From NCBI GenBank assembly GCA_964016885.1, contig OZ024759.1, positions 32,426,001-32,490,000 of the forward strand: a stretch of 64,000 nt of DNA. The letters are read 5' to 3'. The notes below the pieces were generated by a model. That model searched no databases and was not told where the DNA came from. It saw nothing but the letters and a program-made list of their open reading frames with translations. The translations under genes were made by a program, and so were the position numbers. Positions 23,030-58,400 of this stretch are shown piece by piece (position 1 is the stretch's first letter; the number at the start of each line of letters is the position of its first letter). Source of the stretch: Eledone cirrhosa (taxonomy: Eukaryota).

Positions 23030-23280
23030 AAAGCAAAGGAAAAAAGAGTGCTCTATGTATAGAGCAGAGCTATTTAATTAGAAAGTGTACAACATTATAT
23101 AACTACTCCATTACCAAAGGTTTCTGTATCACAGACAATATTGATATACGTCTGGATCGGTCGTCAGACAGAGATGTTATCTGTCTGATAAACAATCCAG
23201 CCATATATTAATATTGTCTGGGATCCAGAAACCTTTGTTAATGGAGTAGTTATATATTGTGTTGTTAACTTTCTAATTAT
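23030..23280. mobile_element. Fold-back element (~200-bp palindrome + tail) in (TA)n with a hammerhead-like motif on the minus strand (23106-23173)
   Basis: The arms taattagaaagt...acagagat and atctgtctg...actttctaatta are mirror images. Minus strand reads CTCTGT-CTGACGA-(stem)-GAAA-CC-ttt-GG-T-A-ATGGAG. Confidence 0.7.
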
Positions 23281-23289
23281 ATATATATA

Positions 23290-52400: not shown

Positions 52401-55400
52401 CATTAACATCAACATTTTTACATAATTTTCCCTACCCTTTCTAATGCCAACCCATACTTTATTTATTTATGGTGATTCTGATGCTAAAAATCTTATTTTG
52501 TTCTGACAATGTTTTTATTTTAGGTGAAAATGATTTCTTCAAACCATGATGTAGATTTAGAACACAAATACAGCTCTGGTCCTTTGGAATGGCCCCTCAT
52601 GGATAAGAACGTGGCCTACTGGATCAGTCCTTATACCAATGTAAGTTCTCATAGATGTTTTACATATATATGAATATATATATATATATATATATATATA
52701 TGTATATATATATATAGACATATATATATATATATATATGGACATATATATATACATATGGACATATATATATATATATATATATATATATATATACACA
52801 TACATATGGGCATATATACATACATATCGACATATGTACATACATATGGATATATATTGACATCAATACTCATCTTCTTCCATTTCTTAGAGGGTTCTAA
52901 AACCCCACTATCAGGCTAAAATTTCTTTAGTCAAAAAGTATGGTGAAAGCTTCTATTTCACACTCACTCACTGTTTCAAAACAAACTTATATATATATAT
53001 TCATATATATATACATATTTAAATACACATATATATATATATAGGCACCCGTTTTACGTGTGTTGTGTTGAGGCAAATAACTATGTGTATACTCTGGTAA
53101 TGTATCTTACATTGCCCATTGAGTGCACTGAGATACAACCGGTACTGGCATTGATAAATATGCTGGGTTCGTCAACTCCTTATTATATATATATATATAT
53201 AGGAACCAGTAAGACCCCGACGGCTGAGCTCAAGCCGTTTCGATGGCTAATTCTGGACTAAAAAAAAAAAAAAATTCCAGAATTAGCCGTCGAAACGGCT
53301 TGAGCTCAGCCGCGGTGTCTTACTGGTTCCTATTACCCACTCTACTACCCTAAGTATTGAGTACTTTGGTGCGTTATGGTCCACCTGGTTCCTTACCACA
53401 ACTCCTTCGTTATATATATATATATATATATATATGTATATATAAATATACATCTATCTTAAACAAGTCTCAGAACTAACTATAGAGAATATCACATTAG
53501 AATAAAGAAAACCATATGAGTATTTTCCCAGAGGCAAAATTAACTTGTGTGTGAAACAACAATGGCTTCTGATTTAGGCACAAGGCCTACAAATTTGGAG
53601 GAGGGGAAAGTCGATTAAATCGACCCCAGTACATAACTGGTACTTTATTTTATTGATTCTGTAAGGATGAAAGGCAAAGCTAACCTCGGTGTGTGAAACA
53701 GTTATTATAGGTAAATGTGTTTTGTTTGTTTTTAGGCACAGATACACCTTCTGGGGAATATCTTTATCTGGTATCTCTGCACCGCTTCACTCTTTGGTTA
53801 TTTACTTCTGTGGTTGTTTTACCTGCTACGAAGACGACGTTTCATTTTTGATTTAAACAAAGGTGAGTGTATGTATAAGGTATATTGAATTATTGGAGAG
53901 ACAGGTGTGGTGTGGTGTGTTGAGTGGTGTGATGTAGTGGTGTTGGGGTGTGGTGTAGTGTGTTGAGTGGTGTGGTGGTGTAGTGTGGTGTGGTGTGATG
54001 TGGGAGTGTGATGTAGTGGTGTTGGGGTGTGGTGTAGTGTGTTGAGTGGTGTGGTGTGATGTAGTGGTGTTGGGGTGTGGTGTAGTGTGTTGAGTGGTGT
54101 GGTGGTGTGATGTGGGGGTGTGGTGTAGTGGTGTTGGGGTGTGGTGTAGTGTGTTGAGTGGTGTGGTGGTGTAGTGTGGTGTGTTGAGTGGTGTGGTGTG
54201 ATGTGGGGGTGTTGGGGTGTGGTGTAGTGTGTTGAGTGGTGTGGTGGTGTAGTGTGGTGTGGTGTGGTGGTGTTGTGGTATATTGAGTGGTGTAGCGGTG
54301 CGGTGTGGGGGTGTGTTGTGGTCTAGTGGTGTAGTGTGGTGTAGTATGGTGTGGTGTGTTATGGTGTTGTATTAATGGAAAGACAGGTGTGTGGTGTGGT
54401 ATTGCCTTGGTGTGGTATAGTTGTGTTGTGTTGAATTATGGTAGAGATAGGTTGTGATGTGGTGAGGTGTTGTGATGTTGTAGTGTCATGTTGTGTGTAT
54501 GTATCTATTGTGCTCGTGTCTTTGGGTTTTGTGTTGTCTGCTCTGTGTTGTGTTGTGTTGTCTGCTCTGTGTTGTGTTGTCTGCTCTGTGTTGTGTTGTC
54601 TTGTCTGCTCTGTGTTGTGTTGTCTGCTCTGTGTTGTGTTGTCTTGTCTGCTCTGTGTTGTGTTGTCTGCTCTGTGTTGTGTTGTGTTGTCTGCTCTGTG
54701 TTGTGTTGTCTGCTCTGTGTTGTGTTGTCTTGTCTGCTCTGTGTTGTGTTGTCTGCTCTGTGTTGTGTTGTGTTGTCTGCTCTGTGTTGTGTTGTCTGCT
54801 CTGTGTTGTGTTGTCTTGTCTGCTCTGTGTTGTGTTGTCTGCTCTGTGTTGTGTTGTGTTGTCTGCTCTGTGTTGTGTTGTCTTGTCTGCTCTGTGTTGT
54901 GTTGTCTGCTCTGTGTTGTGTTGTCTTGTCTGCTCTGTGTTGTGTTGTCTGCTCTGTGTTGTGTTGTCTGCTCTGTGTTGTCTTGTCTGCTCTGTGTTGT
55001 GTTGTCTGCTCTGTATTGTGTTGTCTGCTCTGTGTTGTGTTGTCTGCTCTGTGTTGTGTTGTCTGCTCTGTGTTGTGTTGTCTTGTCTGCTCTGTTTTGT
55101 GTTGTCTGCTCTGTGTTGTGTTGTCTTGTGTTGTCTGCTCTGTGTTGTGTTGTCTTGTCTGCTCTGTGTTGTGTTGTCTGCTCTGTGTTGTGTTGTGTTG
55201 TCTGCTCTGTGTTGTGTTGTCTTGTCTGCTCTGTGTTGTGTTGTCTGCTCTGTGTTGTGTTGTCTTGTCTGCTCTGTGTTGTGTTGTCTGCTCTGTGTTG
55301 TCTTGTCTGCTCTGTGTTGTGTTGTCTGCTCTGTGTTGTGTTGTCTGCTCTGTGTTGTCTTGTCTGCTCTGTGTTGTGTTGTCTGCTCTGTATTGTGTTG

Positions 55401-58400
55401 TCTGCTCTGTGTTGTGTTGTGTTGTCTGCTCTGTGTTGTGTTGTCTGCTCTGTGTTGTGTTGTGTTGTCTGCTCTGTGTTGTGTTGTCTGCTCTGTATTG
55501 TGTTGTCTGCTCTGTGTTGTGTTGTGTTGTCTGCTCTGTGTTGTATTGTCTGCTCCGTGTTGTGCTGTTGCTGCGAATGCCCCCCCCCCCCTCTCTATAT
55601 ATCTATATTCTCTGTATTCTCTATTTCAGTGGAGTGGAACCAGTTTACGTTCACAGGTCATTTGTTAATTGGAGGTTTCTTATTCCATTACCTGCCTCAC
55701 TTTATAACTGATCGAACCCTCTTCCTCCATCACTACCTGCCGGCTCTCTTGTTCCAGGTGATTACCTGTGCTGCTGTCTTTGATCATCTCATCCTCATAT
55801 CAACCAGGTAAGTACCTAATCTCACTAATGTCCTACTGAATATCTATAGATCTGTGTGTGTGTGTGTGTGTGTAGATCTGCATATATATATATATATATA
55901 TATATATATATATATATATATATATATATATATGATGGTTATAAGGGGCACAGAGAGTGCTAAAAGGTACGTTATTCCGGGTTGAATCGGAGGTAACCAC
56001 AGTAAGTAAGGTACTCAATACATAGCAGAGTATAAAAGTTTTAATATAGATGAGATTCTACAGGACTAGAACTGTTTCATTCTTCAGAAATCATCAGGAA
56101 TCCCATATATATATTTTAACGATCTTTTAATTTCTTCTTTAATATATACTCTAGTTCTACCAACTGTTGAGTGCTACTTATCTGATATATGCATAGTTTT
56201 ATTGTTCTACAATATTACTCACATTCTACATATATATATATATATATATATTTATATATGGAAACTGGAAATGCATTGACTGCATACAGACAGACATTTT
56301 CATTTTTATATATATATAGATAACAATATATATATATATATGTGTATGTATATATATATATATATGTGTACCCATTATTATCTATATATATAAAAACGAA
56401 AATGTCTATCTATATGGTGTCGATGCATTTTCAGTTTCCATCCGATTTTGTTCAAATTTGATACATAGGTTATTTAGCTCCCAGAGCATGTCAACATGTT
56501 AACATTTAGTTGAAATCTTTCTCTCCCCTAAAATAGCAGCGTTCTGGGGCTATTTAAAGACAGCACTGTTGATGAGAGAGGGGGTCTTTATTTACAGTAC
56601 AGTGGCGGAAGGTGTGCCCAGCAATGACGGGCTCTTTTGCTAGTATATATATATATATATATAGGAAAAAGTATGACCCCGACGGCAGAGCTCAAGCCAT
56701 TTCAACGGCTATTTCTGGACTGAAATAGCCGTCGAAACGGCTTGAGCTCTGCCGTCGGGGTCATACTTTTTCCTATTTCTTACTCTACTACCCTAAGTAT
56801 TGAGTACTCTGGTGCGTTATGGTCCATCTGGTTCCTTACCACAATTCCTTCGCTATATATATATATATAGAAGTAGTAACACAACAGTTAGTTCACCATA
56901 CCGAGAACAATTGTTTCACCTGAAGTGGATCTTCAGCTCGGACTTAGAGTCCGCTTAAGGTGAACTAACTGTTGTGAACTAACGGTATGGTGAACTAACT
57001 GTTGTGTAACTACTTCTACCTAACTCGTCCCATGGACTGAGTGCGCTACCACTACGGATATTACCTTCCATTGTTCTACCCCTATATATCATCATCATCA
57101 TCATCATCATCATCGTTTAACGTCCGTGTTCCATGCTTGCATGGGTTTGGACGGGAGTTTTCCCACTTGAGGCAAGAGTGGTTGTCTTGCTCGCATAGGA
57201 CTGTCTGGCGGGTTTTCTACAGTTGGATGCCCTTCCTAACACCAACCACATTTACAGTGTGGGGCTGGGAGGTTTTTACCGTGTTGCCTACACGGCCACA
57301 TTACAGCGTGGACTGTCTGGCAGGTTTTCTACAGCTGGATGCCCTTCCTAACACCAACCACATTTACAGTGTGGGACTGGGACGTTTTTACCGTGTTGCC
57401 TACACGGTCACATTACAGCGTGGACTGTGTGTTTTTTTTTCGTGACACCTACACGATCTCATTTGTTTCGGCCTGGATTTTGTGGCACCAACATAACTTT
57501 ACATTGAAAGGGGCGGTGTGGATGGGGTGGGGGGAGGGGGGGGGGGGTGTATTTTGTTAGAGATGCCTACTGACTGTAGTAGGTTTTACCTTGTATTTAG
57601 GTAACGCGGGTCTTCTCTGTTACTGAGTACCGCCAAAGGTCTCGGTCCAGTAACATTGTCTTGGAGAGGTGTAAGTGTGTGAGGTCGGAATTTATCAGCT
57701 CGTCCCAGGTTTTTCTGGGTCTGCCTACTCCGTGGCTACCATCTATCTTTATTGCCCTGCACTTTGTTATACAGCTGTCGTCTTTCATGCGCATCACGTG
57801 ACCATACCAACGTAGCCTTCTCTCGAGTAAACAACATATATATATATACATATATATATACACATATATATATACATATATATACACACACACACACACA
57901 TATATATATATATATACATACACACACACACACACACATATATATATACACACACACACATATATATACATACATACACATCTACCTGCATCAGTTGTTA
58001 GCTGCCGTGACACTGCTTCCTTTAACCCTTTAATGTTCAAACCGGCCAGAATTCTCCACCTCTTTCTGTTGAAACTGGCTGTAACAGGCTGCCCATACTG
58101 ATGTTAAGGTATTGTTCTCAAAATAAATAACATTAAAATCTCATAGATTCGATATTATGTGCGATAATTATGTAAGATAAAGCCTTTACCATGAAAATAT
58201 AATAGTATATATAGAGTAATGTGAATGTTAAAGGGTTAAAACCTCCATACTTCCTGAGATTCGCCAACACTACACCTAATATCCCTCCTCCATACACACA
58301 CATGTATATCATGACTCATACACTGTTCACTTCCCTGACATTTGTACATTATTCTATGCACTATACATGCACCTTTGATGAGCTGTAGTGCACCTGAGCA

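Follow-up and report, generated by a model that had tools for sequence, protein, structure and literature searches.

In this study, we undertook a computational analysis of a 64,000-nucleotide stretch of Eledone cirrhosa DNA (contig OZ024759.1 of assembly GCA_964016885.1, positions 32,426,001 to 32,490,000; hereafter the window), a microsatellite-rich piece of animal DNA in which short palindromic elements with a single unpaired tail sit in (TA)n runs. Our analyses revealed that the tails begin with a shared motif, and we are confident that this motif is a conserved single-strand structure, a bulged hairpin of 21–28 nt. The elements themselves are almost certainly stubs of the pseudo-long terminal repeats (pLTRs) of Penelope-like elements (PLEs), and very probably belong to the Hydra clade of that group. 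The hairpin is a putative start signal for the reverse transcriptase (RT) of the elements, a role that we regard as probable. The architecture of an inverted arm, one tail and a (TA)n target is already known for PLEs, and the conserved hairpin cis-element is the new part. No description of the hairpin, or of the doubled copy reported below, was found in a literature search that mostly did not extend to subscription papers and Repbase reports.

A bulged hairpin at the start of the tails

The original prediction had listed ten elements as palindromes with an unpaired tail, mostly flanked by (TA)n, and this description held for all ten, each being palindromic with one tail. An unbiased, window-wide inventory of short palindromes identified 22 outside a large foldback at 6.6–12.7 kb, 11 of which abut the motif, at one end. 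Those 11 are the ten already listed plus a copy at 27001–27107, and every one of them has exactly one tail. Judged by eye, all 11 motif-bearing palindromes meet (TA)n at their tail-less end, and nine of the 11 also do so at the tail end (the remaining tail ends are 32150, next to (CA)n, and 24054, where there is no run), compared with 4.6% of other window positions lying ≤4 nt from a (TA)3+ run, so that the expected enrichment of TA flanks was borne out. Tails measured from the motif start are 60–84 nt long, a narrower range than the 50–100 bp first proposed. The elements had also been described as unrelated families; they form six families that do share the design, but not ten unrelated ones, with four members in family A (40942, 47457, 53200 and 56662), two in family D (24066 and 43553) and one each in families B, C, E and F. 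Palindrome centres vary from copy to copy, and non-palindromic solo copies are also present, both tailed (C2, G, H and I) and tail-less (32906).

The motif consists of RCTC, an upper stem of 3–6 bp, a loop, a 3′ bulge of 1–2 nt (mostly TT), GAGY and RC, and is a bulged hairpin, not a simple loop. Its stricter form, ACTC-N8-20-GAGTRC, has 12 matches at 11 places against 1.5 ± 1.2 (maximum 6) in 60 local dinucleotide shuffles, which upholds the claim of a tail motif shared above background, and the looser RCTC..GAGYRC has 18 matches against 3.0 (maximum 10) in shuffles of the same kind; these window counts are inflated by family copies, and tests per family and outside the window weigh more. The common form is shared, but not by every copy, as the one at 24066 reads ACTT and the one at 40380 ends in GAGCTA, and a string of the type aGCTC..GAGCAC that had been assigned to the element at 23030 is actually at 27045, in an unlisted family B copy.

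An upper stem of at least 3 bp together with a 1–2 nt bulge was present in all eight family representatives (the best copy chosen per family), compared with 0.75 when the inner letters were shuffled, and the same parse fits 11 of the 14 copies overall. When the structure was placed on 18 sequences, eight from the window and ten from metagenomes, 95.8% of cells were paired and 27 cells had two-sided changes. None of 500 shuffles reached this pairing score, and structures slid along the alignment gave 21–55%; kinship can inflate such scores, although the flanks of different families do not align with each other. Unaided, RNAalifold produced the same bulged hairpin fold. No sequence change was seen in the CTC/GAG core; the upper stem shows free covariation, and its G-U pairs work only on the sense strand. 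The free covariation and the sense-only G-U pairs point to a single-stranded sense molecule. A point that weighs against this conclusion is that folding of single sequences gave the full bulged hairpin in only two of the six fragments containing it (families H and F), and for the metagenome locus L045 only as the centroid.

A different reading would have the hairpin recognized as DNA, as a nuclease recognition or resolution site or as a pLTR promoter element, with the copy ends being nuclease cuts. The invariant sequence of the core suits such a reading, in the D. virilis element recognition by the nuclease required the tail (as cited in PMC11167929), and Craig et al. 2021 ascribe the tail to nuclease-mediated resolution (PMC8557442; this and other papers are cited on the basis of the sections consulted). 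We nevertheless consider it improbable, as it does not explain a freely covarying upper stem with G-U pairs on one strand only, and the tail ends of the Poseidon element PAc coincide with RT starts mapped in vitro (PMC11167929).

Hammerheads, relatives and the Hydra clade

Complete type I hammerhead ribozyme cores with stems I–III were identified in families B, C, D and E (four of six), and those of D1 and D2 differ by compensatory changes (by eye). In the window families the hammerhead cut lies, by eye, 25–56 nt upstream of the motif, which is the anatomy of a PLE pLTR. The presence of hammerheads in the arms thus agrees with the earlier suggestion of microsatellite-targeting PLE-type elements. 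Not all families conform, and these cases count against the assignment: family A has only GAAAC-stem III-GTC without CUGANGA, and family F is without a core. A Hydra hammerhead model built from 17 metagenome hammerheads only ranked C2 at the top in the window (E 5e-5), followed by C1 and E (0.13–0.22), and gave family D only E 1.8–6.2, with A, B and F not listed. Rfam yielded no hammerhead match in 55930–57100 or for the relatives L045 and L024, and among the window matches listed (150 of 246) there were only miRNA-type hairpins and one 5S; this silence is uninformative because the hammerheads of L045 were missed too.

Two further families in the window, J (13485–13698 and 47695–47914) and K (15334–15570 and 29356–29590), have a hammerhead with a minimal stem III in two copies each. 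The tail hairpin was not found in either, and they are probably pLTRs of other PLE clades. Hammerhead style alone was rejected as a clade marker, since family K (15405 and 29417) scores well without having the hairpin. Hammerhead-like cores were also observed in the phage contigs L010, L011 and L014.

The hairpin is not confined to the window. A scan of metagenome contigs with a hammerhead-only pattern, in which nothing of the motif was included, gave 61 matches in 60 loci. The window-derived motif pattern, with its gap widened from 20 to 21, was present at 30 to 60 nt past the cut in 21 of the 57 testable matches, with none of the 57 matched on the antisense strand and a background rate of 6 in 4874 windows. 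Together with the covariation of the hairpin, this result supports the proposal that the tail motif is a candidate cis-signal. We relied on the pattern because our hairpin model R1 includes ten metagenome sequences, making its metagenome matches partly circular. By class, 20 of the 61 hammerhead matches have the hairpin, 17 enter (TA)n by the point at which the hairpin would be expected, 21 are truncated, degenerate or interrupted, and three are too short. In 14 phage control loci from IMG/VR with a similar pattern, the hairpin model had no match at the expected place. The motif pattern was matched in six of 13 metagenome sequence clusters; the seven clusters without a match are a point against its generality, several of them being truncated or tail-less and L038 having only a variant.

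The link from hairpin to element type is provided by L045, an intact pLTR-ORF-pLTR element (ORF, open reading frame) with a 2430-bp unit, a 704-aa protein and the hairpin. Its protein carries the Hydra motifs RWK, DKT, CxCX5C, CxxC and CxH, and the unit is under 3 kb. An RT plus GIY-YIG ORF is joined to the pLTR in three motif-bearing relatives (L045, L053 and L058), and 24 of the 60 metagenome loci carry sequence similar to the L045 protein, for which no relatives were found in viral or prokaryote contigs and no match, RT included, in Pfam or PDB.

These loci bear directly on whether the elements might be non-autonomous DNA transposons whose inverted repeats are asymmetric and whose 3′ part carries a hairpin (Helentron/HINE-like elements or miniature inverted-repeat transposable elements) that move as whole palindromes. 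There is no RT in the window, and the inverted repeats and short hairpin-bearing tail of the elements resemble what we take to be the layout of HINEs. However, the arms contain hammerheads, the centre varies among copies and some copies have one arm only, leaving no fixed unit, and the same hairpin is present in pLTRs that flank the RT-nuclease ORF of L045. DNA transposition, including the ordinary miniature elements considered at the outset, is therefore largely refuted, and we regard it as extremely unlikely.

With respect to clade, the Hydra clade is known for (TA)n targets and for pLTRs bearing a canonical type I hammerhead whose stem III is 3–4 bp long (PMC8557442). By eye, the hairpin is found in four of the six Hydra consensi in the supplement of Craig 2021. 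It lies 38–47 nt past the hammerhead cut in Hydra-2_Amil, Hydra-2_Ajap and Hydra-1_Crog (with one mismatch), and it is at the element start in Hydra-1_Ajap, whose end stops 41 nt past the cut. Hydra-1_Amil and Hydra-1_Obim have no clear copy in those consensi, and both end 36–47 nt past the cut (PMC8557442). The hairpin therefore occurs in cnidarian, echinoderm and crustacean consensus sequences as well as in the host of the window.

The elements had been attributed to the Neptune or Naiad type, an attribution that we do not retain as the motif and the hammerhead layout match the Hydra clade; Neptune pLTRs were outside our comparison. Naiads are reported to have no canonical hammerhead (PMC8557442), and four of our six families do have canonical cores. 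Two observations weigh against the Hydra assignment. A perfect hairpin, with a 6-bp upper stem and a TT bulge, is present in the 3′ untranslated region (UTR) of Naiad_Mmer, far from the end (PMC8557442), and the hairpin may therefore not be strictly clade-specific. In addition, no remnant of a Hydra ORF was detected in the window by tblastn or with a profile from 11 Hydra-type ORFs, and the clade of the window families consequently rests on the motif and the hammerhead style. Pfam found no PLE domain in 150 of 246 candidate frames. Copies without an RT are as expected for stubs ending in UTR.

Copy ends, a second hairpin and the origin of the palindromes

The ends of the copies are at fixed positions relative to the hairpin. 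We refer to the end that lies 2–6 nt ahead of the hairpin as site 1 and to the tail end, 60–84 nt later, as site 2. The tail-less arm stops 2–6 nt before the hairpin in all 11 window palindromes, after maximal TA microhomology (the distances for B1, C1 and D2, which are 4, 4 and 2 nt, were read by eye, as automatic figures overran into AT sequence). Tail-less copies of three metagenome subfamilies likewise end 4–6 nt ahead of the hairpin, and position 56776, six bases ahead of the family A hairpin, is where 3726 raw reads from another individual cross into (TA)n. Hydra-1_Crog begins, by eye, 6 nt ahead of a hairpin (PMC8557442).

All four loci whose sequence continues beyond the tail (L031, L045, L053 and L058) have a second hairpin. 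In the three loci with tailed sister copies it is positioned 3–8 nt past the tail end, ahead of the ATG, and in Hydra-1_Ajap a second hairpin is located 61 nt after the first (by eye; PMC8557442). Several points tell against a general second hairpin: those of L045, L053 and L058 have an upper stem of only 1–2 bp (model E 0.06–0.5), these three loci are related, with 73–75% protein identity, and copy C2 has no second hairpin although it extends about 35 nt beyond where tails usually end. Other metagenome arrangements suggest re-insertion at the elements' own ends, namely a (TA)n stretch that separates site 1 from the hairpin in L072 (1900–1950) and, in L043 (1284–1317) and L050 (25–56), a hairpin or tail belonging to an adjacent copy, with a short (TA)n run in between.

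We consider it probable that the elements are heavily 5′-truncated Hydra-clade PLE pLTR insertions in (TA)n, with the hairpin positioning the RT about five bases upstream. That the palindromes arise by dual priming is the explanation that we favour, if only somewhat. The fuller proposal, in which two hairpin copies act as "start five bases upstream" signals and an RT dimer on one RNA primes both target strands, is more tentative and falls a little short of probable. In the scheme that we favour, the element RNA would carry two hairpins, each binding one RT, and the GIY-YIG nuclease would nick both strands of the (TA)n. cDNA synthesis would be primed at site 1 by one 3′ end and at site 2 by the other, aided by 1–3 nt of TA microhomology, and both first strands, primed from opposite strands, would be copied from the same or a sister RNA. 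The two truncated cDNAs would then join at their inner ends, often inside hammerhead stems, to give a one-tailed palindrome, and use of a single end would leave a solo tailed or tail-less stub. The hairpin marking the used start would not be copied, and hairpin 1 alone would survive, in tailed arms.

The same elements and hairpin could also be accounted for if one cDNA snapped back and primed itself to give the inverted arm, as the original prediction had proposed, with the hairpin signalling where the second strand stops or is resolved. Centres are often within hammerhead stems that are able to fold back, those of B2 and D1 are near-perfect, and self-priming has been argued, on an antisense template, by Arkhipova 2013 (PMC3846280). 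The arms of a copy are also nearly identical, with 46–47 of 48 positions alike within a copy compared with 40–45 of 48 between copies (A2–A4), a likeness that counts in favour of our own reading as well. However, snap-back predicts that the tail-less arm is nested in the tailed one, and some tail-less arms hold upstream sequence that the tailed arm lacks: the whole hammerhead is only in the tail-less arm of C1 (31990) and likewise of L056, and the tail-less arm of E (56866) reaches about 10 nt further upstream. Solo tail-less copies stop at the same site 1, the centre of L056 contains short templated repeats that resemble an end-joining scar, and some read records show arms without overlap. 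The extra upstream sequence and the solo copies ending at site 1 fit two first strands better, making snap-back doubtful, and we consider it unlikely. Two separately primed strands also match the two-strand, two-site behaviour of PAc.

Dual priming itself does not account evenly for all observations. The arms of B1 lean the opposite way, and those of A2–A4, D1 and F can be read either way. Part of the pattern could also be mimicked by a later inversion of the spacer or deletion in an arm. On the supporting side, read records of family A connect a long tail-less arm directly with the first base of the hairpin (56721/56722 to 56782), in 3 and 5 contigs and 59 reads from 6 starts; similar joints are present in family C, for which the raw reads also contain strand-switch joints at several positions. 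These read joints could, however, be arm deletions or alignment artefacts. Flip-flop isomers, suggested by the reversed 6-nt loops of A2 and A4, were not used, as two deletions of an A3-like centre are equally possible.

How PLE RTs choose internal start sites, why the tail is optional and how inverted arms arise are open questions (PMC8557442, PMC11167929), and PLE RTs are the sister group of telomerase RTs. Because the hairpin keeps a set spacing to the two ends of the copies, these questions become directly testable, and it is a cheap marker with which abundant "unknown palindromic" repeats can be classed as Hydra-clade stubs. If true, the two-hairpin model would explain the long-unexplained PLE tail as the interval between hairpins, along with palindromes that have a single tail, and it would supply a telomerase-related RT with a portable signal for internal initiation.

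Window copies, their setting and known systems

The four palindromic copies of family A are all on the plus strand. A1 (40941–41140) consists of an inverted tail-less arm, a forward arm with the hammerhead 3′ half (GAAAC-stem III-GTC) and a tail, and its hairpin (41069–41094) has a broken upper stem. The others are A2 (47457–47650; hairpin 47578–47603), A3 (53200–53412; hairpin 53339–53364), which has a central A-run, and A4 (56663–56855; hairpin 56782–56807), in which site 1 is 56776. A solo tail-less copy at 32906–32966 on the minus strand is a single arm that terminates at site 1. Family B comprises B1 (23010–23283, minus), with the hammerhead core to the cut at 23167–23112 and the hairpin at 23070–23048, and B2 (27001–27107, plus), the copy absent from the earlier list, which has a 38-nt perfect palindrome, a hairpin at 27045–27067 and a tail.

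Family C includes C1 (31990–32150, plus; hairpin 32091–32111), whose complete hammerhead is at 32051–32013 on the minus strand, in the inverted arm, the solo tailed copy C2 (55935–56105, minus; hammerhead 56097–56059, hairpin 56031–56011), which runs about 35 nt beyond the commonest tail end, and an old, diverged solo copy at 31820–31941 (plus). In raw reads family C (56034–56102) also occurs as retrozyme-like head-to-tail repeats of about 78 nt, hammerhead included, that end at site 1. Both family D copies are on the minus strand with hammerheads in both arms: D1 (43533–43980) at 43722–43673 (minus) and 43880–43929 (plus), with the hairpin at 43616–43596, and D2 (24054–24478) at 24234–24185 (minus) and 24371–24420 (plus), with a degenerate hairpin at 24131–24111 (minus). 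Family E (56868–57084, plus) has a complete hammerhead in its tail-less arm (56936–56906, minus) and a hairpin with a 1-nt bulge (57023–57044), and in family F (40380–40582, plus; hairpin 40519–40546) a hammerhead core was not found.

The remaining solo tailed copies, all on the plus strand, are G (56115–56230; hairpin 56148–56174), H (31400–31560; degenerate hammerhead 3′ half, hairpin 31476–31499) and I (53044–53182), a stub between two (TA)n runs with a long-stemmed hairpin from 53091. The hairpin of family I was recovered by the hairpin model (E 0.31) although it was outside the training set. Families C and G are also plentiful in a second organism; a third has C, G, A and E at low depth.

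Most elements sit in introns, as indicated by Pfam matches to exon fragments of a protein-O-mannosyltransferase (39498, 44156 and 59158) and to a metallophosphoesterase (28575–29369). A repeat resembling a short interspersed element (SINE), which starts with (CAT)n, adjoins four elements (23283, 40590, 47435 and 57085) in the same (TA)n runs, and an inverted piece of it forms the centre of a 300-bp palindrome at 35546–35859 that is without the hairpin motif. At 45128–45239 a motif-like match precedes a 78-bp palindrome, an order opposite to that of PLEs; this match and those at 5583, 19519 and 42596 were set aside since their layout does not fit. The large foldback, of about 6 kb (6593–12695, centre about 9360), has outer arms 96% identical over 1215 bp, is made of 31-, 58- and 244-bp subrepeats around a GC-rich hairpin, and contained no hairpin-motif match and no Pfam domain. 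A 5S rRNA-like sequence at 62190–62308 on the minus strand (Rfam, 89.6 bits), next to a stretch resembling the SINE-like repeat at 22791, is possibly a 5S-derived SINE. There is also a decayed long interspersed element (LINE) with an AP-endonuclease domain (Pfam) at 17050–19231, and a fragment at 58453–58910 presumably resembles a restriction-like LINE endonuclease.

Among known systems, PLEs in general produce inverted 5′-truncated copies with an optional tail of 30–40 bp (Craig et al. 2021, PMC8557442), compared with 60–84 nt in the window. Hydra-clade PLEs share with the window elements the (TA)n target, the pLTR hammerhead, the inverted truncated copy, the optional tail and, in their consensi, the hairpin, whereas the consulted sections of PMC8557442 describe no hairpin past the hammerhead and no second copy, and the window holds only ORF-less stubs. 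In Adineta vaga, Penelope elements occur with their pLTRs inverted head to head and the tail on just one of the two arms (Arkhipova et al. 2013, PMC3846280), but for those palindromes self-priming was proposed, and they have target duplications of 8–10 bp, which in the (TA)n of the window are unreadable.

A mechanistic counterpart is the Poseidon element PAc of the green anole, which nicks and extends both strands, with RT starting at two internal sites that bound the tail; it also requires RNA on the 3′ side of the start, and dimer formation is predicted for it (Frangieh et al. 2024, PMC11167929). The two tail-bounding starts, the nicking of both strands and the need for 3′ RNA are shared with our model. 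PAc, however, belongs to another clade, its starts are in an AC-rich stem-loop inside the ORF, and the consulted sections of PMC11167929 define no conserved positioning hairpin and no model for one-tailed palindromes. By eye, the PAc template has a stem-loop with a 3′ bulge after the RT start region, at ORF nt 111–118 (PMC11167929).

PLE hammerheads were covered by Cervera and De la Pena 2014 (PMC4209133), and non-LTR retrozymes resemble the window elements in being short, hammerhead-bearing, ORF-less derivatives of PLEs (PMC7229834; bioRxiv 10.64898/2026.07.22.740005). Retrozymes are head-to-tail tandems, whereas the window elements are dispersed inverted or solo stubs, with one 78-nt tandem joint in family C being retrozyme-like.

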